Source: Methanothrix sp. (GTDB taxonomy: Archaea > Halobacteriota > Methanosarcinia > Methanotrichales > Methanotrichaceae). Taken from it: a stretch of DNA of 64,000 bases. Position numbers and translations under genes: made by a program. Shown piece after piece: positions 4,994 to 51,759 of the stretch (position 1 is the stretch's first letter; every line of letters begins with the position of its first letter). Below the pieces are notes generated by a model. It saw only the letters and a list, made by a program, of their open reading frames with translations. It did not search any database and was not told where the DNA came from. Location of the stretch: positions 1 through 64,000 of the forward strand of contig JBAXWY010000010.1 of assembly GCA_037128175.1 (NCBI GenBank), in the 5' to 3' direction.

Positions 4994-5191
4994 TTGAGCA
5001 TGAGTGCCAGTGAGACCATTGAATGTGTATACGAAGGCGGCGTCTTCAAACCGATGGAAAATGTAAAGCTAGAGGAAGGCACCAAGCTAAAGATCAAAAT
5101 TGAAAAGGTAGATCTTTCGAAATACTACGGCATGTTTGGCAAAGCTTCTGCAGAGAGGCTCGAAGAGCTTGAGGGCGAGGTCTACCTGTGA
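4994..5191 (+). CDS. AF2212/DUF104-family antitoxin
   Basis: TIECVYEGGVFKPMENVKLEEG signature. Confidence 0.8.
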   Translation: MSMSASETIECVYEGGVFKPMENVKLEEGTKLKIKIEKVDLSKYYGMFGKASAERLEELEGEVYL

Positions 5192-6743: not shown

Positions 6744-9700
6744 ATGGACCGCGGAGAATCGATGAGTAGGAAGTTTGAGTATGACGTTTTCCTGAGCCAC
6801 AACAAGGCCGATAAGCCACGTGTACGGATGCTGGCGGAACGGATGCGGACTGCGGGGCTACGCGTTTGGCTAGATGAATGGATCATCCAGCCGGGTGACG
6901 ACATTTATCTGGCTGTCGAGCGTGGGCTAGAAGCAGCGCGCACACTGGTGTTATGTTTGTCGCCAGCGGCGCTAGGATCGGATTGGGTGACGCTGGAGAG
7001 AAGCACAGCACTTTTTCGCGATCCGTCAAATATTGGGCGGCGCTTCATCCCGTTACTCCTTGACGATTGCGAAATCCCGGACACTCTGAGGCGTTACAAA
7101 TATGTGGATTATCGAAACGAAACTCAGACCGTCTTCGATCAATTGCTAGCGAGTTTGAGAGCCCAAGAACAGAGTGCGACGGCAAACTATGCTTCGGAGA
7201 CACCCCTGATTCCTCCAGTAAAGCCTGAGCAGGAGATTCAATGGGAGTACGCCGATGAAGCGGTGCGAAAGAACCTGCCGCCTGGTGTGAAGCTCGTGCG
7301 AACGCTGCGGGGGCATACGGGCGTGATCGGGCGCATCGCCTGGTCGCCTGACGGGCATATCCTGGCGTCACCGTCGGCAGACAAGACAATCCGGCTGTGG
7401 GATGCCGATACGGGCCAATGCTTGCGCAAGCTAGAAGGGCACCAAAGCAGTGTCTGGAGCGTCGCATTTGATCCGTTCCGAGGCATCTTAGCCAGTGGAA
7501 GTAATGACAAAACAGTCAAGCTGTGGGACCCAGCTAGCGGCAAACTCCTTCACACGCTCAAAGGGCACCAAAGCGATGTCGTGAGCGTCGCATTCGATCC
7601 AGCAGGCACCATCCTGGCCAGCGGGAGTCACGATAAGACGATCAAATTTTGGGGTCCGACCAGCGGCAGATTGTTCCGCACGCTGGAAGGGCATAACAAA
7701 TCGGTCGATAGCATCGCATTCGATCCAGCAGGCACCATCCTGGCCAGCGTTAGTGATGAATCTGACATCAAGCTGTGGGATGTAGACCGTGGCAAGATCT
7801 CTCGCACCATTAAGCAATCATGCGGCTTTGGCTTGCATTTAGCCTTCGATCCGTTTGACAATCGCATTGCCATTGGGAAAATAGATAAAACAATCGATCT
7901 TCGGAAAAACTCAACAGGTCGATTGCTTCAGACTCTAGAAGGACACCTCGGAGCAGTAAACTGCGTGGCATTTTCGCCCCGAAGTAGACTGCTTGCTTCC
8001 AGGGGCTTTGGTCATAAAGAAATCTTCGTATGGAGAACCGATACCAATGCATGCGTCACCAAGATTGAACTTGGGCTATCTTCAGTGAGTTATGCCATTT
8101 CTGGTCTCGCTTTTCATCCCACACGATCCTGGATTGCCTTTGCTGATTCGGATCCAAGCGTGCTGAAAATCGAGGACGGCAATTATGTAGATAAAAAGGA
8201 GAACGACCATGTTATCTACATTTTTGAACTAGACCTCGGCGTACTTCTCGGCCAAGTGGCAGAATCAAGCGCGCACTACGTCAATGCCAAGGTAGTACTG
8301 GTGGGCGACACCGGTGTGGGCAAGACTGGCCTGAGCCTGGTGCTGAACAACCAGCCATTTGGAGATCCGGGTTCCACTCCGGGAAGGCGTGTCTGGACGT
8401 TAGATTCGCAGGAGGTGAAAGTCGAAGGCGGAATAACACAGACTCGCGAGACGCTGTTGTGGGACTTGGCCGGCCAGCCGGGATATCGAGTCATCCATCA
8501 GTTGCACCTCAACGAAGTGGCTGTTGCCCTCGTGGTCTTTGATGCCCGCAGCGAGATCGATCCCCTGGCTGGCGTCCGTCACTGGGAACGTGCCTTGCGC
8601 CTGGCGCAGCAGCGTCAGGGAACTTCAGGCGTGCCCATGAAAAAGTTTCTGGTCTCCGCACGCAATGATCGTGGCGGTGTGTCCATCAGCGAGGAGCGAA
8701 TGCTGGCGATCCTCAAAGAATTTGGCTTTGACGGTTATTTCAAGACCAGTGCCATGGAAGGCTGGCAGATCAACGAATTGCGCTCTGCCATTGAACAGGC
8801 GATTCCCTGGGAAGAGCTGCCAGAGGTTTCGTCTTCGCAGTTGTTCGCCGACATCAAGTCATTCCTGCTTGAGGTCAAGAAGACTGGGCAGCTCCTGGCG
8901 CCGGCCAGTCAGCTTCATGCCGAGTTTGCCTGTGATCATCCCGACACGGCGACAAAAGTGGCGAACCTTCGGGACCAGTTTGACACGTGCATCGGGCGGC
9001 TGGAAAATCGCGATTTAATTCGCCGACTGAGCTTCGGCTGCTATGTGCTTCTCCAATCTGAGTTGTTGGACGCCTACGCCTCTGCAATGGTCAACACTGC
9101 CAAGCAGGAGCCGGACGGCCTCGGTTCGCTGGCGGAAGAAATCGCCCTAGCTGGCAAGTTCTTCGTTCCAGAGGAGCAGAAGGTCAAGGACCCCGGCCAG
9201 GAGCAGTTGCTGTTGCATGCGACCGTGGAGGAACTCGTCCAGCACGACCTGGCACTTCGGGAGAATGCAGACGATGGCCGCTATCTGGTCTTTCCGTCGC
9301 AGTTTAACAGAGACTATGAGGATGCACCCGAACCGAAAGGCAAGGCCCTGGCGATCACCTTTGATGGACCAGTGCAGAGCCTTTACGCGACACTGGCGGT
9401 ACGATTAGGTCACAGTGGATTGTTCACCACAGGCCGAGCAGAGATGTGGCGAAACGCGGCTGTGTTCACCGCTATTGCTGGCGGAAAGTGCGGGCTTTTC
9501 CTTAATGAATTCGCCGAGGCTCGCGGCCGTTTGATTCTCTTCTTTGATGAAGATGCCAGCCCAGAGACACGATTCCACTTCGAGGAATTTGTCCTGGCCC
9601 ATGCCAAGAGGCGAGCGTTAGATGGAACTGTGGACCTTGTACGGTTCTTTGTATGCTCCACCGGTCACCCTGTGCCTGACGACTACGTGAAGCTTCTATT

Positions 9701-10597: not shown

Positions 10598-10621
10598 TAT
10601 CTGTGCATGCATACACAGATA
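10598..10621. promoter_or_regulatory. Palindromic operator before the antitoxin
   Basis: TATCTGTG-CATGCATA-CACAGATA just upstream of the ATG at 10623, next to a TATA-like CTATATAT. Confidence 0.5.
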
Positions 10622-10622
10622 C

Positions 10623-10775
10623 ATGGCATCCAAGACCAATGTCATTGAAAGGCCGCTCAAGAAGGAGAAAATAGACTTATCCGAGTACTTCGGAGCCATC
10701 AAGCACAGTCCATTACTGGACAGGATTGAGGCAGATTCTAAAAAGATAAGAGAGAATGCGAGGTCGAGAGTCTGA
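10623..10775 (+). CDS. VapB-like antitoxin (short, possibly internally deleted) followed by a PIN stub
   Basis: MASKT..KIDLSEYFGAIK..; the overlapping next frame begins (L)IVLD, a PIN start, and is then lost. Confidence 0.55.
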   Translation: MASKTNVIERPLKKEKIDLSEYFGAIKHSPLLDRIEADSKKIRENARSRV

Positions 10776-38187: not shown

Positions 38188-40629
38188 ATGACTTTTCAGA
38201 TTTTGGCTCAGGCGGACCGGTCCCGCATACTATTATTGCCTCAGAGCGGCAGCAAGGTTCTTTTTGAGGGATATCTGCGTTTAAAGGACATGCCCCAGGG
38301 ACCGAGGGCCTTCAAATTCCTGGTCAAAAAAGGTGATGAGGCAGAGAAATTTCTTCCACCCGAGGACGCTTTGCGAATGCTGCGCAAAGCCGGTGCCATT
38401 TATCTTGCCCGGGGCGACGGCGCAATGGAAAAGAAGTTCATCGAGCTTTTAGGGTCCTATCAACTGAAATACAGGTTTGTGCAGGTCTGCAATCATTGCC
38501 TGGGCCAGAGAAGAGTCACTTACGTCGAGCAGGATGCTATAACCTACAAGGGCAGGCGCATCTGCGAAAACTGCGCAGCGGCTGAACTTTTGCGCGAGGC
38601 GGACTTTCGCGGCCTGGGCCATGCAGCCAAGGCTCATCTGGCCAGGATCTTGAAGACCAGGAGGAGCCTGGACGATGTGGTTAGCCTGCTATCTTTGCAG
38701 AGGCTGGAGCCGGAACTGACCCGCTTTGACACCATCCCTGCCAGCAAGGAGGAGCCTACTCTGCCGCTGGAGTCCATTGCCCTGCCTAAGGATCTCTTGG
38801 AGCTCCTCAAGAAGAGGCTGACCAGGCTTTTGCCGGTACAATCCAGGTCGGTGAAGGCGGGCCTTTTGGAAGGACGAAATCAGCTGGTCGTCTCGGCCAC
38901 GGCCACCGGTAAGAGCCTCATCGGTGAGATGGCCGGTGTCAAGAATCTGATGGAAAATAAGGGAAAGCTGCTCTTTTTGGTGCCGCTCGTGGCCTTAGCT
39001 AATCAGAAGTTCGATCAGCTCAGCGCATACAGGGAATTGGGCTTTCAAACATCCATCCGTGTCGGGGTCAGCCGCATCCGTTTGGGAAAGGGGCGCAATA
39101 TTCCCCAGAGCATGAATGCCGACATCATTTCCGGAACTTACGAGGGCATAGATCAGGTGATTCGCACCAAGAAGAGCCTGGGGCGTGTGGGCACAGTCGT
39201 CATCGACGAGGTGCATATGCTGGAGGACGCCGAGCGCGGCCACAGGCTAGCGGGCATGATCGCCCGGCTGAAGAATGCCGCCCCCAAAGCCCAGTTCATC
39301 TTCCTATCCGCTACGGTAGGCAATCCCGCTGCGCTCGCCAAGCGCCTGGGCACAACGCTGGTCGAGTATTCACTACGACCGGTGCCCATCGAGCGGCATC
39401 TCATCTTCACCTCAGGACCGGAGAAACGCAAGCTTCTGCGGGAGCTGTCCAAAGAGGCGCAGGCCCTGACTTCGTCTACGGGCTACCGGGGTCAGACCAT
39501 CATCTTCACCAATTCCAGAAAGAACTGCTACAATCTGGCCGATGCCATTCCCGGTGCCTCCGCATATCATGCCGGTCTACAGTACCCGGAGAGAAAGAAG
39601 GTCGAGGAGCTGTTTGGCCAGGGCAAGATTCATACCGTGGTCACCACCGCGGCCCTGGCGGCAGGCGTGGACTTTCCCGCCTCGCAGGTGGTCTTCGAAT
39701 CTTTGGCCATGGGCATCGAGTGGCTCAATGTGCATGAGTTCAATCAGATGTTAGGCAGGGCCGGCAGGCCCGGCTATCATGACAAGGGGCTGGTCTACAT
39801 TCTGGCCGAGCCGGGCCGGCGCTTCTCTTCCAAACGGAGTGAATCGGAGGACGAGATGGCCCTGGCCTTGCTGAACGGCCAGATGGAAGACGTGGCACCG
39901 GAATTTGAGGAATCGCAGCAACAAGAGGAGGTGCTGGCCAATGCCGTGGCAGCTCGCTCCCGAGCGGAATTGGAAAAGCTGCACGACCTTACCGTGGGCC
40001 TGGACGACCTGAACAGCTCGCTCGCGTCTCTGGAGAAGGCAGGGCTGGTGAAGGGCATCGTGCCCACCCGTTTAGGCGAAGCGGCAGCGGCCCATTTCCT
40101 GGCTCCGGAGCAGGTGGCCACCATTGTCAAGCTGCTCGGCAAGGGCAAGAGCCCCCTGGAGGTGGCGGTGGCGTTGGAGAGCTTCGAGGCTCTTTACCTC
40201 AAATTCGCAGAACGCATCTCCATCAAATTGCACATGCAAATCTCCCAGAGGGCACTGCATGGCTCTTTTTTGGATCTGCTCTCCAGCTCCGACCTACAGG
40301 AGCTGGATAACAAGCTGCAGAGGTACTGCATGGACTTCTCACGGGACTTTCTGCGCTGCATCTGCAAGGAATCGCCCTACTGCGGCTGTGTCCAGAAGAG
40401 CATATCGCTGCGCATTCTGGATCTGCGGGCGGAAGGCAAGAGCCCGGATGGGATTATCGACTACTTCAGCGACAGGTACGGGATGTACGCCTACCAGGGA
40501 GATCTCATCAACTGGCTGGACCAGATGGTGCGCTACCTGGAGGCCATCGAAGCGGTGGCACGGGTGTTGGGCAAGGAGGCGGCGGCCAAGGAGGCGGGGG
40601 AGAGGAAGAAGAGGGTGGAGGGGGAGTGA
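38188..40629 (+). CDS. Ski2-like DExH helicase (ASH-Ski2-like)
   Basis: ATATGKS, DEVH, SAT and QMLGRAGR; Cys motifs at both ends. Confidence 0.9.
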   Translation: MTFQILAQADRSRILLLPQSGSKVLFEGYLRLKDMPQGPRAFKFLVKKGDEAEKFLPPEDALRMLRKAGAIYLARGDGAMEKKFIELLGSYQLKYRFVQVCNHCLGQRRVTYVEQDAITYKGRRICENCAAAELLREADFRGLGHAAKAHLARILKTRRSLDDVVSLLSLQRLEPELTRFDTIPASKEEPTLPLESIALPKDLLELLKKRLTRLLPVQSRSVKAGLLEGRNQLVVSATATGKSLIGEMAGVKNLMENKGKLLFLVPLVALANQKFDQLSAYRELGFQTSIRVGVSRIRLGKGRNIPQSMNADIISGTYEGIDQVIRTKKSLGRVGTVVIDEVHMLEDAERGHRLAGMIARLKNAAPKAQFIFLSATVGNPAALAKRLGTTLVEYSLRPVPIERHLIFTSGPEKRKLLRELSKEAQALTSSTGYRGQTIIFTNSRKNCYNLADAIPGASAYHAGLQYPERKKVEELFGQGKIHTVVTTAALAAGVDFPASQVVFESLAMGIEWLNVHEFNQMLGRAGRPGYHDKGLVYILAEPGRRFSSKRSESEDEMALALLNGQMEDVAPEFEESQQQEEVLANAVAARSRAELEKLHDLTVGLDDLNSSLASLEKAGLVKGIVPTRLGEAAAAHFLAPEQVATIVKLLGKGKSPLEVAVALESFEALYLKFAERISIKLHMQISQRALHGSFLDLLSSSDLQELDNKLQRYCMDFSRDFLRCICKESPYCGCVQKSISLRILDLRAEGKSPDGIIDYFSDRYGMYAYQGDLINWLDQMVRYLEAIEAVARVLGKEAAAKEAGERKKRVEGE

Positions 40630-41910: not shown

Positions 41911-42977
41911 ATGATGCCAAAGACATCTCTTCTGCGCTTGACATGTATTGTTTTATTGTTCGGCGTGTTGTTTGCATGCGCTCTGGAGAATACGGCAGTT
42001 GCATATACTGGAAGCGTCGATTTTCCTGAGCTATTCAAGTTCAGCAACCAGAAAAACGTGAATCTGGAAACAGCTTGCTCTCCATTTCTCATTCGTTCAA
42101 GGACAATTCAGTTTCCGTCACGCAGGAGTTGCTCGCTGCAATAATAGCAACGCTTGACAAGGAAGTTGGGGAGAGCTATCTGCCTGTCGAAGAACAGTGA
42201 GACTACGGAATGGGGCCGGGCAGTACCTACACAATTGGCGACTCCCGTAGATCAACTTCCTACAATGGCGGAGTGGACTACAAGGGGCGCGGATACATAC
42301 AGATAACGCACAAGGAGAATTACCAGAAATATTGCGGCCCTGACTGTGTTGGAACTTCTGCACCGGAACTTGATGTATGCGGATGCAAGAACCAATGGTA
42401 TTGCACAGTTACTGATCCGGCCGTATGCCCACAGGCAAGAACTCTTCAGCCGGATTATGCAGCCAGGATATTCGCCTCATATTACATTGAAAATAGCCTT
42501 GTATCCCTATCAAATGCAGAGAGCTACTGGAATGTCGGCAAGGCGATAAACGGCGGCGATGCGTATGCGTCTGACTTTAATGCCAAGGCAAACGCCTATC
42601 TCACGCTGTTCCTTAACAATACGGACAAGACAACGACGCTTCTCACTTGGCTGAACTCAGGCACTTCGGCTAAGGGCGATTTTGATGTAATTCATGCATC
42701 TATCTGGACTGTGAGTGAGACAGGTCCCACAGGTAATTGTCCTGGGACGTGGACACGACGTCCAGGAACTGACACATTTGATGCATCCTGGTCTTGTGAA
42801 GGAGGTGTTACGGATGTTATCGATATCACATCGGTTGAGGGAAATAAGATCGTCCTACATCGGCGTGGAATTAATGGAGATTATACAGGAATAATTTCAC
42901 CTGACGGCACAAGTATTTCAGGAACAGGTTCATGGTTTAGCCCTGGCACGAAATGGTTAGTATCTGTTCCCACGTAG
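41911..42977 (+). pseudogene. Secreted GH19/lysozyme-like hydrolase, disrupted by a frameshift and an in-frame TGA
   Basis: Signal peptide at 41911; frameshift at about 42075; AAIIATLDKEVG..PVEEQ*DYG with TGA at 42198-42200; GH19 signature YKGRGYIQITHKENY; KAINGG. Confidence 0.7.
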
Positions 42978-43375
42978 ATAGCAACTCTAATTACGGTAGC
43001 ATAGGCTCTCAATGGATCCCACATTCAGAACGTTGACTTACTTCCTACTGACAGGACCTGATCATTCGGGTCTGGAGGCTCTGACGCCAGGAGGATCTTG
43101 GTCGCCTCCCGCTTAGAATCCCCGGCAAGCCCTGCGGCGACCGGCTCCCGCCCGCTGGCCCGAGGGCCGCCTGGCCATGAGGCTGCCCAGGGCCGGACGC
43201 CGTCTGCGCGTGCCTGCGCCCGGATCAAGCCAGGATGCGATCATTTTTTACATCATATCTTCAGTGCTACCTGAACCACGGTCCCACGGGCCTCCCGCGC
43301 CCCGAGCACGAGTGCACGCGCACGCGAGCGGGTCCGGTCGGACGTGCTGGAGGTGCCGATCCAGCGATTGATTTT

Positions 43376-43754
43376 TCATTTCGTTTTTCCAATGGACTTC
43401 ACGAAGTGAATGTATTCTTCGGCCTTTATCCCGGCGCTTTCCAGGGCTTCAATTGTCCTGGGATCGCTGAGTAACCTATCCAGTATCAGAGGAGTTGAAT
43501 CATATGCTTTATCATGATCATTCGAAGTTTATTAATAAAATTACATCTTTGATAATAGTATAAATAATAACAAATGGATCAAGATGCTCACTGCGTAGCC
43601 CCCTGAGGGCGTGACGTTTGGGTTCTCCGATTTCCGGATTGATGCTGATCTCCTGGAGCTTCCTGATAACTCGCTCTTTTAATAATCCATCTTTTTTAGT
43701 CAGCTTTTTAAATTTTTTATCAAAATAGTATGTTGCGATGGTCTGGAAAGCCAT
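43376..43754 (-). pseudogene. RelE/YafQ-type toxin copy 1 (+1 frameshift at about 43522)
   Basis: FDKKFKKL..NPEIGEPKRHALRGLRSEH..FVIIY; shifted tail HDKAY..KSIGKTK*; span 379 nt = 3n+1. Confidence 0.75.
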
Positions 43755-43760
43755 GGCAAT

Positions 43761-43925
43761 CTAAAGGTTTCGGAAATGCTCTGCCAGCTCATCAGCATTT
43801 TTGAGGCGGGTAAATCGTCCCTCTTTAAAGTCCCTGAGCCCTTTGATAATGCCCGTGGCAATGTCATCTTCTTCGATATTGGCCCGAGTGGATTTCCTCT
43901 CCGGAGCTTTTACAACAGCAGGCAT
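43761..43925 (-). CDS. Putative antitoxin (54 aa), copy 1
   Basis: MPAVVKAPERKSTRANIEEDDIATGIIKGLRDFKEGRFTRLKNADELAEHFRNL, directly upstream of relE. Confidence 0.7.
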   Translation of the reverse strand: MPAVVKAPERKSTRANIEEDDIATGIIKGLRDFKEGRFTRLKNADELAEHFRNL

Positions 43926-44160
43926 GGTATGCAATCTTACGCCTTAGGCTATAAGGATTTCGAAAAGATGACGATCAGTTGCAGGCGCATGTGACCAAAA
44001 TCGGCGACCCTGCAGCATGGCGACCGGCTCCCGCCCGCGGGCCTGTTGCCGCCTGGCCGAAAGGCTGCACAGGGCCGACAGCCACGCGCGCGAGCGGGCC
44101 CGGCCGGGCGGGCAGCCGCGGCCACTTCCTCCGCCCTGTAGATGTTCGAAAACAGAGATC

Positions 44161-44362
44161 CTAAAGCTCACGCAAACGAATTCGTCCCGGTTCCACAACA
44201 GCGAAATGGCCTGGCCAATCGCATCTTGAATCCAATACCTCGGCAATCATCTTCATCGCAAATACTGGGCGTGCTTTCGGCGATGGCCAGAACATCATTC
44301 CCCTTTCTTCGCAACAATTCGATGGCCAGGAAGGGTATATTTTCGTCAGCCAGAAGCCGCAT
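44161..44362 (-). pseudogene. DUF5615 (PIN-like) toxin with an internal deletion
   Basis: MRLLADENIP..GNDVL..DED joined out of frame to the C-terminal DWPGHFAVVEPGRIRLREL*; the middle part is missing. Confidence 0.7.
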
Positions 44363-44609
44363 TAAGGCCATCCTGCAAGGCTGTATTTGGATAGACACGT
44401 TCCGATTTCATCATGGAGCTGGCGTAGCAGAGACAGGCCTGAATGTCTTCATGAACTAATCGGGGGTAGTTCTGGAGTATCTCGGACTCTTTCCAGCCAT
44501 TGGCCAAAAGGTCGATAACAAATTCCACCGCCAGGCGCGTGCCTTTGATCACGGGTTTTCCTACAAGGATTTTGGGGTCTAGAGATATGCGGTCTTGCCA
44601 ATTGATCAT
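44346..44609 (-). CDS. DUF433-family antitoxin
   Basis: DPKILVGKPVIKGTRL..ILQNYPRL..DIQACL.YA. Confidence 0.9.
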   Translation of the reverse strand: MINWQDRISLDPKILVGKPVIKGTRLAVEFVIDLLANGWKESEILQNYPRLVHEDIQACLCYASSMMKSERVYPNTALQDGLNAASG

Positions 44610-44795
44610 AGATCATATTATGTGGACCATTAAGATATATTTTCTGCGGACGGAGGACAAGAGAGAGGCTGCATCGAGCGACCGGCATCCGCCCGCGGGC
44701 CTGGGCCGCATGGCCGAGAGGCTGCCCTAGGCCAGACGCCGTCCCACGCAGGCGTGGGCAGGCGGACGATATGCAAAGGCAGGCAATAATTCGTA

Positions 44796-45212
44796 TCACT
44801 CAAGGACTCGTTCGATCGCCTCAGAGATGCTCCAGACCTCAATCATCCCTTCTTCACTTATGCGTCTGAAATGGGCATCATTGGTGATCAAAATTGCTCC
44901 GGTGTGCAGGCAGGTTGCAGCATGAACGATATCTGCACTTTCGCTGGGTGGAAAGAAAGGCTTGCATGACAGGATGTCCTCTTCAGACTGCTCTATTATC
45001 ACCAGCTTGCCAAGAAGGATTGCCAGGAACGCATCAGCTTCGAACTTTTTTGCATATTTCTCGTATTCCGAGACGAGGATGTCGTCAGCGACCAGCTCCC
45101 ATGAACCGTCCAGGAGCCTCAAGAATAGCTCCGTGCTCTTCGTGTTTCCACGTTTTACAGCAGCAATGAACAGGTTCGTATCAATTAAGAACCTTGTACT
45201 TTTGCCGGGCAA
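44796..45212 (-). CDS. PIN-domain (VapC-like) toxin
   Basis: FLIDTNLF; E in SEYEK; ADIVH; LITNDAHF; probable TTG start overlapping abrB. Confidence 0.85.
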   Translation of the reverse strand: MPGKSTRFLIDTNLFIAAVKRGNTKSTELFLRLLDGSWELVADDILVSEYEKYAKKFEADAFLAILLGKLVIIEQSEEDILSCKPFFPPSESADIVHAATCLHTGAILITNDAHFRRISEEGMIEVWSISEAIERVLE

Positions 45213-45441
45213 GCTTATTGGCCTCTTCTTCGATCTCAGCTTCGAACTTATCCAGATCAACGTTTTTGGCTTTTTCGATTATCTCATCCAGCAAGGATTT
45301 CAAATCGATTTTTTTTAGCACAATGGCATCAGGTCCCAGTTCATCCACTGCGAACTCGTCGCCGGGATTTATGCCCAGCCTGCGGCGGAGATCATTTGGA
45401 AGAACCACTCTTCCTTTATCATCAACTTTCGTGAACGGCAT
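45181..45441 (-). CDS. AbrB/MazE-family antitoxin
   Basis: KVDDKGRVVLPNDLRRRLGINPGD; operator-like TCCCA-CTAA-TGGGA at 45452-45465. Confidence 0.9.
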   Translation of the reverse strand: MPFTKVDDKGRVVLPNDLRRRLGINPGDEFAVDELGPDAIVLKKIDLKSLLDEIIEKAKNVDLDKFEAEIEEEANKLARQKYKVLN

Positions 45442-45840
45442 AGATTATCAATCCCACTAATGGGAGTATTCATGTTTAAGCTTTTGGATAGGACGGTTTG
45501 CTTCTCATGATTAGCGGTTCGTCATCGTCCTTCAATGCAAGGGAGCAGTGATCCCCGACTGATTAAGATCACTCCACCTAAACCCTGGCGAGGCTGCGGC
45601 GGGCGACCGGCTCCCGCCCGCGGGCCTGTTGCCGCCTGGCCATGAGGCTGCCCAGGGCCGTACGCCGTCTGCGCGTGCCTGCGCCCGGATCAAGCCAGGA
45701 TGCGATCATTTTTTACATCATATCTTCAGTGCTACCTGAACCACGGTCCCACGGGCCTCCCGCGCCCCGAGCACGAGTGCACGCGCACGCGAGCGGGTCC
45801 GGTCGGACGTGCTGGAGGTGCCGATCCAGCGATTGATTTT

Positions 45841-46217
45841 TCATTTCGTTTTTCCAATGGACTTCACGAAGTGAATGTATTCTTCGGCCTTGATCCCGGC
45901 GCTTTCCAGGGCTTCAATTGTCCTGGGATCGCAAAGTAGCCTATCCAGTATCTGAGGAGTTGAATCATATGCTTGATCATGATTATCGAAGTTTATTAAT
46001 AAAACTACATCTTTGATAATAGCATAGATAATAACAAATGGATCAAGATGCTCACTGCGAAGCCCCCTGAGTGCGTGACGTTTGAGCTCTCCGATTTCCG
46101 GATGATGCTGATCTCCTGGAGCTTCCTGATAACTCGCTCTTTTAATAATCCATCTTTTTTAGTCAGCTTTTTAAATTTTTTATCAAAACAGTACGTTGTT
46201 ATGGTCTGGAAAGCCAT
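45841..46217 (-). pseudogene. RelE/YafQ-type toxin copy 2 (-1 frameshift at about 46102)
   Basis: Paralogue of 43376-43754; GGATGATG versus GGATTGATG; span 377 nt = 3n-1. Confidence 0.75.
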
Positions 46218-46223
46218 GGCTGT

Positions 46224-46388
46224 CTAAAGGCTTCGGAAATGCTCTGCCAGCTCATCAGCATTTTTAAGGCGGGTAAAACGTCCCTCTTTGAAGTCCCGGA
46301 GGCCTTTGATAATGCCCGCAGCAATGTCATCTTCTTCGGGATTGGTCCGAGTGGATTTCCTCTCTAGAGCTTTCACAACAGCAGGCAT
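46224..46388 (-). CDS. Putative antitoxin (54 aa), copy 2
   Basis: Intact 165-nt paralogue of 43761-43925. Confidence 0.7.
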   Translation of the reverse strand: MPAVVKALERKSTRTNPEEDDIAAGIIKGLRDFKEGRFTRLKNADELAEHFRSL

Positions 46389-46655
46389 GGTATCCAATCT
46401 TACGCCTTAGGCTATAAGGATTTCGAAAAGATGACGACCTGTTACCGGCGCATGTGACCTAAATCCAGGCGGCCTTGCAGAAAGGCGACCGGCTCCCGCC
46501 CGCGGGCCTGGTGCCACATGCCACGGGGCTGCCCAGGGCCGGACGCAACGCGCACGCGAGCGGGCCCGGTCGGGCAGGCGGAAGTGGGTTTCCGATGACG
46601 GTCGTCATGCCGGAAAGAAAGGTTAAATCCTAACAGTATGCATATGTCTCATGAC

Positions 46656-46913
46656 ATGTTCGCCGAATACATTGCAGCCGCCCTGGAGCGAGCCAAATAT
46701 GAAATAATCGATGACCCTGAGCCGTATTATGCCTCAGTTCCCGGGCTGCCGGGAGTGTGGGCCACCGGCAAGACCTTTGAAGAATGCCGCAGGGAGCTTA
46801 TCAGCACAATTGAAGGATGGATTGTGCTGGGCCTGCGGATGGGGCATCCCATCCCATCGATCGATGGCCACACTATATTTGTGTCCCTGGAGCCGGTGGC
46901 GGTTGTCGAGTAA
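46656..46913 (+). CDS. hicB: HicB-family antitoxin
   Basis: YYASVPGLPGVWATGKTFEECRRELISTIEGW. Confidence 0.85.
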   Translation: MFAEYIAAALERAKYEIIDDPEPYYASVPGLPGVWATGKTFEECRRELISTIEGWIVLGLRMGHPIPSIDGHTIFVSLEPVAVVE

Positions 46914-47130
46914 ACTGGTTCCAGTATCCAGACGCGAGCTGATCCGGCGGCTGGGTGATCTGGGATTCAATGGACCATTCACCGGCACAGACCATGAATT
47001 CATGACAAAGGGAGCTGCGCGCGTTAAACTGCCAAATCCGCACCATGGCCAGGATATCGGCGCGGATCTCCTTGTCAGAATTTTAAGGGACTCTGGAATC
47101 AGCCGCGATGAGTGGTTCAGAGTGGCCTGA
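46903..47130 (+). CDS. hicA: HicA-family toxin
   Basis: PVSRRELIRRL..GF..GTDHEFM..LPNPH..DI..LL.RIL; TTG start overlapping hicB. Confidence 0.8.
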   Translation: MSSKLVPVSRRELIRRLGDLGFNGPFTGTDHEFMTKGAARVKLPNPHHGQDIGADLLVRILRDSGISRDEWFRVA

Positions 47131-47377
47131 AATGGCAAAGGCTGTTGATGGCAGGCTTTTCGTCCTGGCAGAAGCGGCTTGCTTAGAATCCCGGCGGCCT
47201 TTCAGCATGGCGACCAGCTCCCGCCCGCGGGCCTGTTGCCGCCTGGCCGATGGGCTGCCCAGGGCCGGACGCCACGCGCGCGCGAGCCCAGTCGGACGGG
47301 CAGCCGCGGCGCTTCCTCTGCACGTTGGTGGTGGAGCTGATCGTTAGGGTGCTTGAAAAAAAGATCCAGAAATGCTA

Positions 47378-47602
47378 TTAAAGCAGATCTTGCAGTTCTT
47401 CGAGGCTTATATCGGCATCCTTCAAAATTGCATGCAATGTGCCTTTGCGAAGGTCTTTGCTATGAAATGGAACAACGGCAATCGTTTCCGTTCGTCGATT
47501 ATAGTAATAGTAATGGCTCCCTCTGACTCGTATCAGCTCAAATCCAGCGTTCTCCAAAGCCCCGGCAAGCTTTTGGGGTGTTAATACAGGGAGTTTAGGC
47601 AT
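47378..47602 (-). CDS. hicA: HicA-family toxin
   Basis: MPKLP..LENAGF..RGSH..VVPFH..LRKGTLHAILKDA. Confidence 0.9.
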   Translation of the reverse strand: MPKLPVLTPQKLAGALENAGFELIRVRGSHYYYYNRRTETIAVVPFHSKDLRKGTLHAILKDADISLEELQDLL

Positions 47603-47828
47603 GGGCTTCAACGAAAACCGTATATTCTAAAACATCGTTATCTGTTGGCACTTCTTTCCCCAAATCGATCAAAGTTTCAATATAGCCTTCTATCGCCTCT
47701 TTGGCCATGGAAATGGCTTCCTCAACAGTCTCACCAAAGGTAACACATCCAGCCAAAGCAGGCACTATCACAGTATAGCCGCCTTCCTCTTCTTTTTCGA
47801 GCCTGATTCGGTAATTCAGAGTCTTCAT
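47595..47828 (-). CDS. hicB: HicB-family antitoxin
   Basis: EEEGGYTVIVPALAGCVTFGETVEEA; homologue of 5306-5539. Confidence 0.9.
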   Translation of the reverse strand: MKTLNYRIRLEKEEEGGYTVIVPALAGCVTFGETVEEAISMAKEAIEGYIETLIDLGKEVPTDNDVLEYTVFVEAHA

Positions 47829-48004
47829 TGAAATATAATATGCTGTTTTGCCTATTCAACTTTTAGGTCCCTCTGCCTGCACAATCCCCTACTCTTGGGC
47901 AGCAACTACCTTCGCCACCGAGCACGAGTGCACGTGCGCGCGAGCGCGCCCACTTGTGCGACCGGTGGGCCGATTGAGCATTGTCTAATCAGCCGCGAAT
48001 TCTT

Positions 48005-49051
48005 CTAAACCTCGACGAAGTCCGACAGTCTCATCTGCCCTATTTGCCCAGATTCCATGATCCGCTTGAAGTTCTCCTCCAGGACCTTTTGTCTCTGCCT
48101 GATGATCAGTTCCACAAAGACAGCTACCATTTCCGCATATCTCTTTTCATTGCCGTGCCTGAGGGCCTGGAGATGCTCGGCTCGGTCCTTTCCTAAGAAT
48201 AGCAGTTTCGGGTAAGGCGGCTTGCTTCTCATGAGCAGATAGTTGAACAGCTCCCGGCCCACCCGTCCGTTGCCATCGGTGAAGGGATGAATCATCTCAA
48301 AATGGTAGTGAAATAGCACCGCCTCCTCAAAAGGATGGGCTCCTGCCCACACATTATTATAATAATCTTCAATTATCTTTTCCAGCTCATCCTCAATCTC
48401 AAACGATGGCGTAAGTACCTGGTCACAGACGCTTATGCCGATAAGATCGGTGCGACGGAAGGTGCCTGCTGATTCGTGGTCGATATTGTTCATGATCAAG
48501 GTGTGCAGGCCCTTGATGTAGCGTTGACTCAGTGGACCACGATGCCTATTCCTGTAGTCTATAACCCTTCGGAAATTCTGGACCTCGTTGATCTCTCGCA
48601 GGCTCTTTTTTCCGGGCAGGAGACCACCATAAAGAAGGTCGCGGGTATCTCCTAAAGTTAAGGTGTTCCCCTCGATGGCTGTTGTGCCCTGCACGTAATT
48701 TATCTCGAATTCCTCTTCGTACTTTCTCTTTTCATCAGTTGTTAGAATCTCAGTGAAGGCTTTGTAGGTATAACGCATCAGTTCCAGCCGCTCTGACATC
48801 CCTTCACCGAGATATCTGGTGGAGTATCTGGCGCAGCTCAGGCGCGAGGCCTTCTCCACTGCGTTAGTCTCGATCTCCAGCGCCAGACTTATACTCAGGC
48901 TTTTCAGTTCTCCTGGCGAAAGAGCAGAGCTACCAATATACTTTCTGACCTTGGCGTTTTTCTTGCCTATTTTTATGTCTTTGACCAGATAGTATTTCTC
49001 CGCACCATCTTTGCATATCTGTCTTTCCAGGCGATAACTGCTTTGCAGCAC
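48005..49051 (-). CDS. Fic-domain protein
   Basis: HPFTDGNGRVGR Fic motif; TTAIEGN inhibitory-helix motif. Confidence 0.9.
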   Translation of the reverse strand: MLQSSYRLERQICKDGAEKYYLVKDIKIGKKNAKVRKYIGSSALSPGELKSLSISLALEIETNAVEKASRLSCARYSTRYLGEGMSERLELMRYTYKAFTEILTTDEKRKYEEEFEINYVQGTTAIEGNTLTLGDTRDLLYGGLLPGKKSLREINEVQNFRRVIDYRNRHRGPLSQRYIKGLHTLIMNNIDHESAGTFRRTDLIGISVCDQVLTPSFEIEDELEKIIEDYYNNVWAGAHPFEEAVLFHYHFEMIHPFTDGNGRVGRELFNYLLMRSKPPYPKLLFLGKDRAEHLQALRHGNEKRYAEMVAVFVELIIRQRQKVLEENFKRIMESGQIGQMRLSDFVEV

Positions 49052-49280
49052 AGAATATGTAGATGATTTATACCTTTATCAATTTTTCCCAAAAAAAGTC
49101 GTCATTCGACTTTTCATCCCGGATGTAGCGCATTGCTCAGAATTCCGGCGACCTTTTCGCAAGGCGACCGGCTCCCGCCCGCTGGCCCGAGGGCCGCCTG
49201 GCCGAGAGGCTGCCCCGAGCGCACGCACGCGAGCGGGCCCGGTCGGGCGTGCTGGAGGTGCAGATCCAGCGATTGATTTT

Positions 49281-49380
49281 TCATTTCGTTTTTCCAATGG
49301 ACTTCACGAAGTGAATGTATTCTTCGGCCTTTATCCCGGCGCTTTCCAGGGCTTCAATTGTCCTGGGATCGCAAAGTAGC
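49281..49380 (-). pseudogene. C-terminal stub of the RelE-type toxin (third copy)
   Basis: LLCDPRTIEALESAGIKAEEYIHFVKSIGKTK*, near-identical to the tails at 43376 and 45841. Confidence 0.75.
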
Positions 49381-49662
49381 CACGTGCGCTGAAAGGATTT
49401 AACTCTTGTTTCGGATCGTAACAAGTTGCCGACAAATGCATTAGCCAGCCCTGGGCGGCCTCTCAGCATGCGGCCCCAGACTCACGAGCTAGGGGGGCAC
49501 GGGCACTTGGGCCCGCCGGGGCTCAGGCAGGGGCGATCTTGATTACCTTATCCCAGTTTGCACGCACTAATTGGAGCTAGGATAGCCCGTAAAACCCTTG
49601 ACGAAGGCGACATTCGCTTCTGTGGTCCTTCCAAGGGCGTTGAGAGTAATGCCTTTGTTGTA

Positions 49663-50418
49663 TCAGAGAGAGGTTGTGATTTTCACTGCTGAGTCGACCA
49701 CCACGCCATTCTTGGATAGTTCTACATAGATCTTATTTCCATCGATGTCGATAGACTTGATAACCAATTCATATCCTTCTTCTAACATCAGTGGGGTGCC
49801 ACAGGTGATAGTTCTCCTAAAAGAATCGTTGATGACTACCAGAGATGTATCTGTGTCTGATACCTGCCAAATTTGATCTACAGTGGCCAAATTCTGATTA
49901 GCTCCACGAAAAGCATTTTTGAAATGAACCTTGATTACTTCGACATCTTTAGCATTACCGATATCTTTCGCAAAAGTATAAATGTCGTCTACTTTCTGAG
50001 AGGTTATGATCACTGCTGAGTCGATCACCGCTTCATTCCTGGATAGTTCTACATAGACCTTATTTCCATCGATGTCGATAGACTTGAACGCCAATTCATA
50101 TCCATCTCCCAGCTTCAGAGATGTACCCTCAGTGATTGTCATATTATGAGAATTGTTAACAATCACATGAGAAGGATCTGATTCAGATACCTGCCAAATT
50201 TGATCTACAGTGGCCAAATTCTGATCAGCTCCACGAAAAGCATTTTTAAAATGGACCTCGATTACTTCAACGCCTTTGGCATTACCAATATCTTTGACGA
50301 AAGTATAAGTGGCAGGATCATTGAAGTTGATAATATCATCGGGCGTTATGTTTTGAGAAGAGGCCATACCAATTGGAATCAGCATCATCAACATTATCAA
50401 GATATGTGCCATTTTCAT
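49663..50418 (-). CDS. S-layer-domain protein with an internal tandem duplication
   Basis: Signal peptide; two repeats of about 110 aa (KDIGNAK..HFKNAFRGA.QNLATVDQIWQVS..SIDIDGNK.YVELS..DSAV). Confidence 0.75.
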   Translation of the reverse strand: MKMAHILIMLMMLIPIGMASSQNITPDDIINFNDPATYTFVKDIGNAKGVEVIEVHFKNAFRGADQNLATVDQIWQVSESDPSHVIVNNSHNMTITEGTSLKLGDGYELAFKSIDIDGNKVYVELSRNEAVIDSAVIITSQKVDDIYTFAKDIGNAKDVEVIKVHFKNAFRGANQNLATVDQIWQVSDTDTSLVVINDSFRRTITCGTPLMLEEGYELVIKSIDIDGNKIYVELSKNGVVVDSAVKITTSL

Positions 50419-50504: not shown

Positions 50505-51695
50505 TCAGTAAGTGCTGAGCTCTCCTCTAAACAGCATCTGCTGCAACTTGGGAATATTGGCCAGCCAATCGTCCAAAATCTCCGTGGCCCCCGCCTCCAG
50601 GTTCTTCATGTCCACGCCCTCTTTGGGCACGATCTGCACGCTGGCGATATGCGGCTCGTCGATGGGCTTGCCGATCTGCGAGAGCATTTTGATGTAGACC
50701 TCTTCAATGCCCTGCACCTCGGCGGCTATCTGCCGGGCTGCCTCCGTGGAGAGAAGGTTGTAGATCTTGCCCACATGGTTGATGGGATTCTTGCCGCAGG
50801 TGGCCTCCAGGCTCATGGGCCGATTAGGCGTGATCATGCCGTTAGCCCGGTTGCCCCGGCCTACAGCTCCATCGTCTCCCATCTCGGCGGATGTGCCGGT
50901 GACAGTGATGTAGACCGATCCCTGCTCGATGTTGTCGGCCACATTCATCTGCGCGTTTACTTTTCGCGACGTGAACTCTTTGGCGTACTGAACGATATGA
51001 TCCACGATGGCGCTCTTCGTGTCCACATACTCCTTGAGGTTCGCGACATGCCGATCAACCATGGCGCAGGCAATGGTCAGATTGATGACATCTCCCTGAC
51101 GCATGCCCATGACCTTGATATCTTCACCAATGGCCGGAACGCTATTCTTGAGCCTCATCAATTCACGCTCGGTATTGAAGACGATGTTCTCCGTTTCGGA
51201 GAGAGGCGCATATCCCACGCCAAAAGATGTGTCGTTGGCAGAAGGGACCTTGCGGCCGAATACGTCCCGCAGGTCGGATGAGCCCATGCCGATCTTGGCA
51301 TCAAGGATGACGTGATTGTTGACGTCCAGGTTGGAGAGCGATTCGCTCAAGAGCTTTCTCCCTGCCTTGATGGCGATGGTGTCCACCGGAATCTCCACTT
51401 CCTTGAAGACCCTGGTGGCACGGCCCGTGAGAAGAATGTAAAGAGGGCAGATGACCTCGCCGCCTCCAAAAGCGGGCTTGGACCGACCGGCTACGATCTG
51501 CGTCTTGTCGGTGTTGTGATGCAGGACCGCTCCAAATCTATCAAGGTATTCCTGGCAAAGGGCCCGGCTGATGGACTCAGCGAGGCCGTCCGCCACGCTG
51601 TCCGGGTGTCCAATGCCCTTGCGCTCTACCAGCTCGATTTCCTGTTGCTCCAACGGTCTTTGATTGAGGCGTTCAACCTTGATATTTCTCTTCAT
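50505..51695 (-). CDS. mat: S-adenosylmethionine synthetase (archaeal type)
   Basis: [34 protein letters not shown] and [13 protein letters not shown]. Confidence 0.95.
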
Positions 51696-51759
51696 GACCA
51701 ATCCTCAGAATATGATGAAATCCAAGATCTTATTAAGGCTTTGCAATTGCTTTGCACGA

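Follow-up and report, generated by a model that had tools for sequence, protein, structure and literature searches.

A reshuffled array of toxin–antitoxin cassettes beside a helicase gene in Methanothrix: integron-like architecture without the defining parts of an integron

How can gene cassettes be reshuffled at a locus that has the layout of an integron but lacks its integrase and its recombination site? The question is raised by a stretch of 64,000 nt from Methanothrix sp. (assembly GCA_037128175.1, contig JBAXWY010000010.1, positions 1 to 64,000), hereafter called the window. Between positions 43089 and 49489, this stretch carries an array of small modules, mostly toxin–antitoxin genes, punctuated by a GC-rich repeat. 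The repeat occurs there in seven copies of the same orientation, to which are added a right-half copy and a fragment that is inverted. A first-pass annotation of the sequence had described the locus as an integron-like array and had offered two explanations, namely, a new recombination site acted on in trans or repeated integration at a single attachment (att) site. The explanation that we favor, and to which we give about an even chance, is a family-specific cassette array downstream of a helicase gene, with the architecture and dynamics of an integron and with homology-dependent recombination in the core of the repeat.

The repeat is confined to this locus. Its 20-nt core has seven matches in the window, all on the plus strand, at 43136, 44019, 44677, 45602, 46484, 47209, and 49163, where 0.02 matches are expected from shuffled sequence. 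A search of the whole genome (98 contigs, 2.96 Mb, 99.8% complete) with up to three mismatches returned seven matches, which are the same seven array copies. A profile hidden Markov model (HMM) trained on five copies placed all ten of its matches with E ≤ 0.018 on the array contig, between 43115 and 49509, and the next-best matches in the genome have E values of 2.5–4.9. The seven same-strand copies of the first-pass annotation are therefore borne out by both searches, the repeat is not scattered over the genome, and the half copy that had been placed near 47918 is real, being a right-half module at 47931–47988. The element length of 90–130 nt proved too short, as the copies span about 115–180 nt with their semiconserved extensions. 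The GC content, in 100-nt bins, reaches 0.76–0.78 at most copies and 0.64–0.65 at repeat 3, repeat 7, and the half copy, compared with 0.508 for the genome.

The array is specific to the family Methanotrichaceae. A sequence profile of the repeat detects it in 29 of the 59 Methanothrix species genomes, and a 24-mer with up to three mismatches detects it in 15 of the 59. Where another genome of the genus has 24-mer matches, the good ones (at most two mismatches) are confined to one or two contigs; a weaker, three-mismatch match in genome G016 lies on a further contig. Among 69 sampled genomes of the family, 18 match the profile, three of them weakly and in two other genera; none of the 71 genomes sampled from four other families of the class does so. 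Half of the 16 matches to an exact 22-mer fall in Methanothrix or Methanotrichaceae, including all of the multicopy ones, and the remaining eight are single matches in GC-rich bacteria. In metagenomes, 17 of 23 stretches with the 22-mer hold the repeat according to the HMM, and the largest array has at least 10 copies at one locus, with 10 copies in 10 kb. In each of the fetched loci that hold two or more copies, all are on one strand, with the 45-nt fragment at 49445–49489 as the sole exception. Neither arm of the repeat has a match in the viral contig collection. In three relatives without the repeat (G005, G017, and G008), no other repeat family punctuates the genes at this locus.

The dynamics of the array are evident from a comparison among relatives. 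The order is not invariant: the same modules occur in different orders and combinations in different genomes and also between metagenomic populations. The arrays of relatives contain further cassettes, including a second ParE/RelE type, DUF4258 with an MqsA-like partner, and a DUF7557 antitoxin, as well as a TPR protein and a PH-SHOCT protein, which are not toxin–antitoxin genes. We aligned 61 distinct full-length copies of the repeat from the window genome, its relatives, and metagenome contigs, and clustered the sequences to the left and right of each copy into classes. The commonest left-neighbor class (10 repeats) meets seven right classes, and the next two classes (8 and 7 repeats) meet four each. 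Despite this free adjacency, the start sequence of a cassette predicts its end (5/5, 4/5, 4/5, 2/2, and 2/2). The cassettes are therefore discrete units with near-free adjacency, joined at repeats, and their breakpoints lie in the repeat.

Alignment with relatives places the breakpoints within repeats. As corroboration, contigs of two other metagenome runs show 11 joints when placed on the window, 10 of which are repeat-to-repeat (both ends inside a repeat or no more than 25 nt from one); the eleventh is a 127-nt skip inside hicB. Neither read depths nor gaps in the coverage of the window by the RNA run were counted as evidence. In genome G001, the shared cassettes are 93–95% identical to those of the window and the synthetase/permease flank is 87% identical, a contrast that is compatible with exchange between lineages but is no proof of it.

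Where within the repeat do the crossovers fall? We determined, column by column, the association of the repeat alignment with the left and the right cassette. The first approximately 25 columns track the left cassette, and the columns from 156 onward track the right cassette, whereas the approximately 130 columns between them are tied to neither. In a nearest-neighbor permutation test, the left extension scored 30.6 with the left cassette (4.1 expected) and the right extension scored 39.7 with the right cassette (6.1 expected), with 0/1000 permutations in both cases; the arms and the center gave no significant result with either neighbor. Consistently, at junctions that have the same neighbors in two genomes, the identity of the cores averages 0.78, compared with 0.73 for random pairs, while that of the extensions reaches up to 0.96. 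In the copies of the PIN-AbrB cassette, the switch from cassette-specific to generic sequence occurs at differing columns. The idea that breakpoints would lie at a fixed base of the repeat thus holds only in part: they fall within the repeat, but their position varies. In an integron, the attC site travels with its cassette. The core examined here behaves differently, which fits a model in which exchange is possible in either of the two conserved arms.

The anatomy of the repeat is that of a two-armed element. In the alignment, the consensus is about 146 nt long and comprises a left and a right arm, both GC-rich. The two arms match each other imperfectly in inverted orientation, and within them are the palindromes GCCCGCGGGC and GCCCGGCCGGGC. 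The mean pairwise identity is 0.86 in the left arm, 0.84 in the right arm, and 0.64 in the center, which varies in both sequence and length; semiconserved outer extensions flank both arms. Two copies in the window (43089–43379 and 45556–45844) are long forms of about 290 nt each, in which an insert splits the left module from the right.

A hairpin is predicted from the consensus, and 81.6% of its cells are paired, compared with 29–45% when the partners are slid. However, there is no compensatory change: shuffled 3′ partners give 81.4%, a value as high as that observed arises in 69 of 500 shuffles, and the covariation score is 0.060, compared with 0.057 in shuffles, so that the hairpin is without covariation support. 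The consensus fold calculated by RNAalifold has almost no stability (−0.78 kcal/mol). Folding energy was rejected as evidence for a hairpin, as the folds of single copies are no more stable than those of shuffled GC-rich sequence (z from −0.99 to +2.33). The repeats contain no tRNA and match no Rfam family, even at E ≤ 1. The repeat is conserved in sequence rather than in structure.

These properties bear directly on whether the array is an integron. Pairs of attC boxes (R″ RYYYAAC and R′ GTTRRRY, 40–140 nt apart) are absent from both strands of 43000–49600, where shuffled sequence gives a mean of 1.1, and from all 61 aligned repeats. The best match to the IntI model TIGR02249 in the window genome scores 40.7 bits, far below the cutoff of 265. 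The first-pass annotation was thus correct in finding no such boxes and no integrase in the window, and the absence of an integrase extends to the whole contig. With no integrase from which to start, no sequence could be recognized as an attI site either. Four of the five integron features that we tested are missing (an integrase, attC boxes, structure-based conservation, and a site linked to its cassette), and one is present, namely, a co-oriented array of discrete cassettes in shuffled order. The array is not an integron.

Four observations make homology-dependent exchange the likeliest explanation in our view: the arrays have no linked or co-distributed enzyme, the position of the crossovers varies, the core shows no tie to either neighbor, and conservation is seen in sequence rather than in structure. 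A metagenome joint that lies within a 40-nt stretch identical in two repeats also speaks for it. The core of the repeat is, we infer, the recombination substrate. Recombination within this core of about 120 nt would delete, duplicate, reorder, and exchange cassettes, and excised circles or incoming DNA would re-enter at any repeat; re-entry of this kind would account for the co-orientation of the repeats. The reaction would be general homology-dependent recombination, with the conserved arms acting as portable homology and without an integron-type integrase. The addictive toxin–antitoxin content would favor retention of the array.

Several observations weigh against this proposal. At orthologous junctions, the core diverges much faster than its flanks, a behavior that the model does not require and does not fully explain. 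Homogenization of the cores within a genome is weak (0.757 compared with 0.735), and concerted evolution of the cores was rejected, since the excess of identity is just 0.02. Homologous recombination also leaves unexplained how unrelated toxin–antitoxin families acquired the same flanking repeat. The conservation of the arms throughout the family, together with a center that is free to vary, suggests that a protein recognizes them or that they are under selection for something else. Neither an excised circle nor a recombination event was observed directly. In addition, the metagenome joints serve as corroboration only, because de Bruijn contigs can mis-join at exact repeats of 31–40 nt.

Some of these points are better accommodated if the array is a functional analogue of an integron, in which a dedicated site-specific recombinase, with its gene at another place in the genome or on a helper element, recognizes the two arms and moves the cassettes in trans. 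Such an action would resemble that of an integrase on attC clusters that lack an integrase of their own. It would account for the strict co-orientation of the repeats and their confinement to a single locus, for the conserved inverted arms around a variable center, and for the same boundaries being shared by many unrelated cassette families. It would also agree with the inverted HicBA pair, which keeps the orientation of the repeat, and with the position of the repeat core 3′ of the genes in six of the seven window modules, as in integron cassettes. Because the conserved arms and the shared boundaries of unrelated modules need explaining, we regard this as a serious rival, possible though not probable.

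The search for the enzyme itself did not favor it. No tyrosine recombinase (PF00589) is encoded on the array contig of the window genome. Of five other genomes, G061, G059, and G043 likewise have no match on their array contigs, and G012 has none; in the fifth, the single-contig genome G057, the nearest match lies about 40 kb from the array. The homologues of the two full-length tyrosine recombinases of the window genome are multicopy and patchy and do not track the arrays, and both were rejected as candidates; genome G059 (94% complete, four repeats) has neither at E ≤ 1e-20. The window genome contains no serine recombinase. Its Y1 (IS200-type) transposases, found at four places, were likewise rejected, as their surroundings share no motif with the repeat. 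A co-occurring tyrosine recombinase or HUH transposase, which the first-pass annotation had proposed to look for, was thus not found in linkage or in co-distribution. Its new site acted on in trans did not gain support either, given also that the core is unlinked to either cassette, that the switch points vary, and that a folded site would be expected to show the covariation that is lacking. One version of the idea avoids part of this difficulty. In an undescribed archaeal cassette-capture system, a putative recombinase encoded away from the array would act on a two-arm site of about 120 nt and exchange DNA at either arm, and the lack of linkage between the core and the cassettes on both sides would follow from this. 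We hold this version, an independently arisen functional analogue of the integron, equally tentatively.

The position of the arrays calls for a different consideration. The left anchor in the window is a DEAD/DEAH helicase gene with a C-terminal DUF5814 domain (38188–40629, plus strand, Pfam), and the variable region starts directly after its stop codon, with a sequence that differs from genome to genome. In all 13 arrays that could be fetched together with the end of the helicase gene, the first repeat lies 72–3433 nt downstream of the stop codon, in one orientation. Furthermore, a 3′ coding fragment of the helicase of about 100 nt (window 40422–40522, 81–83% identical) is found inside the arrays of three genomes, beside a repeat: L012 (G016) at 8020–8120, L025 (G061) at 10620–10720, and L013 (G001) at about 5040–5100. 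These findings would be understandable if small circles had been integrated serially at an att site near the 3′ end of the helicase gene, by the integrase of a larger element that is now absent, leaving tandem att copies behind; the orphan half copies and the long forms resemble hybrid sites of such a process. Against it, the repeat shows no similarity to the 3′ end of the helicase gene with all filters off, and no element combining the repeat with an integrase was found near the arrays or in the viral contig collection, plasmid collections lying outside the search. Moreover, the array and the helicase gene of G012 are on different contigs, and accretion in one direction alone would not produce the free reshuffling of neighbors. 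Repeated integration at one att site, the second explanation of the first-pass annotation, therefore retains the fixed position downstream of the helicase and the helicase fragments but not the element with site and integrase, and we judge it unlikely.

Three further observations concern the same region. In the two sequences examined (G016 and G061), the helicase fragment is joined to the left arm of a long-form repeat. In G012, the closest relative, the end of the helicase gene and the sequence found behind its stop codon in the window are on separate contigs (C1 and C2), with the break exactly at the stop codon; this suggests that the stop codon is a rearrangement hot spot. A TIR-domain gene (PF13676) stands directly after the helicase and before the first repeat in G061 (L025, 8251–9027), and the arrangement in G001 (L015) is similar.

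A very improbable alternative is that a selfish palindromic element of the miniature inverted-repeat transposable element (MITE) or repetitive extragenic palindrome (REP) type colonized the spaces between the genes of a pre-existing toxin–antitoxin island by repeated insertion, with shuffling as a by-product. The arms do resemble terminal inverted repeats around a variable center, the core is unlinked to both flanks, and genome G008, which is free of the repeat in both repeat searches, has a toxin–antitoxin module with a HicB-like gene directly behind the helicase. Yet the genome holds no copies elsewhere, the copies in each array are co-oriented, no target-site duplication is visible in the alignments when inspected by eye, and no matching autonomous element was found. 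There is equally little to be said for a functional cis element or small RNA common to the modules (an insulator, terminator, or regulator-binding site), with recombination as incidental: although conserved arms with two palindromes are typical of sites for dimeric DNA-binding proteins, and contigs from RNA libraries cover several cassettes and part of repeat 7, the lack of Rfam matches, of covariation, and of folding beyond that of shuffled sequence, the orientation of the repeat, which ignores that of the genes (HicBA being on the plus strand), and its absence from the other toxin–antitoxin loci of the genome all speak against this view.

Returning to homology-dependent exchange, we describe the array on which it would act. 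All full repeats lie on the plus strand, and all modules except one HicBA pair lie on the minus strand. Repeat 1 is a long form (43089–43379), with a left module at 43089–43213, an insert of about 86 nt, and a right module at 43300–43379. It is followed by a ParE-like toxin gene (43379–43754, PF05016) with a frameshift near 43521, where tblastn shows two frames, and by the 57-aa antitoxin candidate of this first ParE module (43761–43934), which has no Pfam match. After repeat 2, a short full form (43968–44149), come a disrupted gene for DUF5615, a PIN-like toxin candidate (44164–44398; Pfam and comparison with a relative), and a DUF433 antitoxin candidate (44346–44609; PF04255, E 3.5e-22). Repeat 3 (44664–44778) is divergent and has lost part of its right module; next to it are a PIN-domain toxin (44796–45260, PF01850) and an AbrB/MazE-type antitoxin (45181–45441, PF04014). 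Repeat 4, the second long form (45556–45844; left module 45556–45679, right module 45765–45844), precedes a second ParE-like copy (45844–46217), whose frameshift at about 46104 is apparent from intact relatives, and a second 57-aa antitoxin candidate (46224–46397), 88% identical to the first by sequence comparison.

The right part of the array begins with repeat 5 (46431–46599) and the sole plus-strand module (46638–47130), composed of HicB (46638–46913, PF21748) and HicA (46897–47130, PF07927). Repeat 6 (47157–47316) is followed by HicA (47378–47611, PF07927) and HicB (47595–47828, PF15919), which together occupy 47378–47828. Next are the orphan right-half module already mentioned, which lies on the plus strand and was detected with a wider repeat model, and a Fic/DOC-family protein of 348 aa (48005–49051, PF02661). 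Repeat 7 (49111–49284), which like repeats 2, 3, 5, and 6 was identified by the core search and the HMM, is followed by the last 32 codons of a ParE-like gene (49284–49379), recognized by comparison with intact relatives, and the inverted 45-nt fragment, on the minus strand, is a partial copy of the left module of the repeat found by the HMM. The right flank contains an archaeal S-adenosylmethionine synthetase gene (50505–51701, minus strand, Pfam), which in one close relative directly follows the Fic cassette.

Pfam agrees with the gene calls made in the first pass (antitoxin-relE, DUF433-DUF5615, abrB-PIN, hicBA, and fic), the relE type being ParE (PF05016). The paired families found next to each other (PF05016, PF04255 with PF18480, PF04014 with PF01850, and PF07927 with PF15919 or PF21748) indicate, by gene family and adjacency, that the cassettes are predicted type II toxin–antitoxin modules. 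Two other statements had to be revised. The interval between the cores at 47209 and 49163 contains not exactly one module but HicAB and Fic, parted by the half copy alone. Nor is every module self-contained: three of the seven are not, because comparison with intact relatives reveals decay. Both ParE-like copies are frameshifted relative to intact genes of 125 aa, and the DUF5615 gene lacks residues 51–73 of its 128-aa relative, with a change of reading frame; in addition to these three broken toxin genes, the third ParE is the 32-codon remnant. The loss of the toxin first, with the antitoxin kept open, is the usual pattern of decay of toxin–antitoxin modules. The antitoxin partners of the broken ParE and DUF5615 toxins do remain open.

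A few side observations concern the array and its borders. The inserts of the long forms (43214–43299 and 45680–45764) are a deletion derivative of an AT-rich unit of about 230 nt found in relatives, with longer versions in the loci L012, L013, and L025. This unit has TATA-like runs and small hairpins and often stands ahead of plus-strand HicBA cassettes, of which it may be the promoter region. An insertion sequence (IS)-type transposase with an rve integrase core is inserted beside a ParE cassette in one metagenomic array (L072, 2435–3511). Just left of the window array (42210–42977), there is an open reading frame of 255 aa without a Pfam match, the N-terminal part of which we take to resemble a GH19-type lysozyme/chitinase motif. 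Relative to its closest relative, the window has 1340 nt extra, which begin at the left edge of repeat 7 and end just past the synthetase gene. Within this segment lies an S-layer-domain gene (49663–50418) that has an internal tandem duplication of 327 nt (81% identity).

Methanothrix ranks among the principal methanogens that consume acetate and, to our knowledge, almost nothing is known of its mobile genetics. About half of the sampled Methanothrix species draw on a common pool of at least a dozen small cassettes, mostly toxin–antitoxin modules. A dedicated repeat is the place of their reshuffling, with none of the parts that define an integron. Should a recombinase take part, cassette capture would have been invented a second time, independently; should homologous recombination be enough, the array would show that selfish addiction modules can spread on portable homology arms of their own. 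With either mechanism, the array offers a naturally occurring landing pad of defined sequence, at which the insertion of genes into Methanothrix could be attempted. Our full-text literature search, which did not extend to the supplementary tables of the archaeal integron paper discussed below, returned no description of the array in Methanothrix or Methanosaeta, and the part of PMC4158269 that was covered contains nothing on it.

How, then, does the array compare with known systems? Intergenic palindromes of the REP, bacterial interspersed mosaic element (BIME), and MITE types are familiar from other genomes, as are the "minimal mobile elements" of Neisseria, which are exchanged by homologous recombination after DNA uptake. 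The Methanothrix repeat shares with them the GC-rich imperfect palindromes between genes and an exchange that needs flanking homology only. Unlike REP and MITE sequences, however, it is found at one locus and in one orientation, and, in contrast to the Neisseria elements, the homology resides in the repeat itself and not in flanking housekeeping genes. Tandem accretion at one att site is known from cis-mobilisable elements beside integrative and conjugative elements. Here, too, co-oriented tandem sites lie by the conserved 3′ end of a gene, and the units lack a recombinase of their own, but the Methanothrix units are small (0.6–1.9 kb) and hold one module each, their neighbors are freely permuted, and no integrase-bearing partner was found.

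The closest resemblance is to sedentary chromosomal integrons, such as the Vibrio superintegron with its near-identical repeats, and to clusters of attC sites lacking integron integrases (CALINs). Like these, the Methanothrix locus lies on the chromosome and consists of small cassettes in a row, between which stand co-oriented, imperfectly palindromic repeats of about 120–150 nt that are alike within a lineage. It is likewise rich in toxin–antitoxin modules, one cassette is inverted, and the order is shuffled between relatives; in both cases the integrase can be missing. CALINs are described in the text of Ghaly et al. on integrons in Archaea (2022, PMC9668308) that was covered here, where archaeal arrays mostly lack an adjacent integrase and toxin–antitoxin cassettes are discussed. 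According to the same text, those arrays were detected with the usual criteria for integrons, and the bacterial IntI1 recombines their attC sites, which are canonical, in contrast to the array in Methanothrix. The string "Halobacter" is absent from the main text of PMC9668308 and "Methano" occurs once; its supplementary genome lists, outside this coverage, may include Methanothrix. Compared with integrons and CALINs in general, the Methanothrix array is without IntI in the genome, without R″ and R′ boxes, and without covariation, and it is further set apart by a repeat core that is tied to neither cassette and by its host, a methanogenic archaeon.

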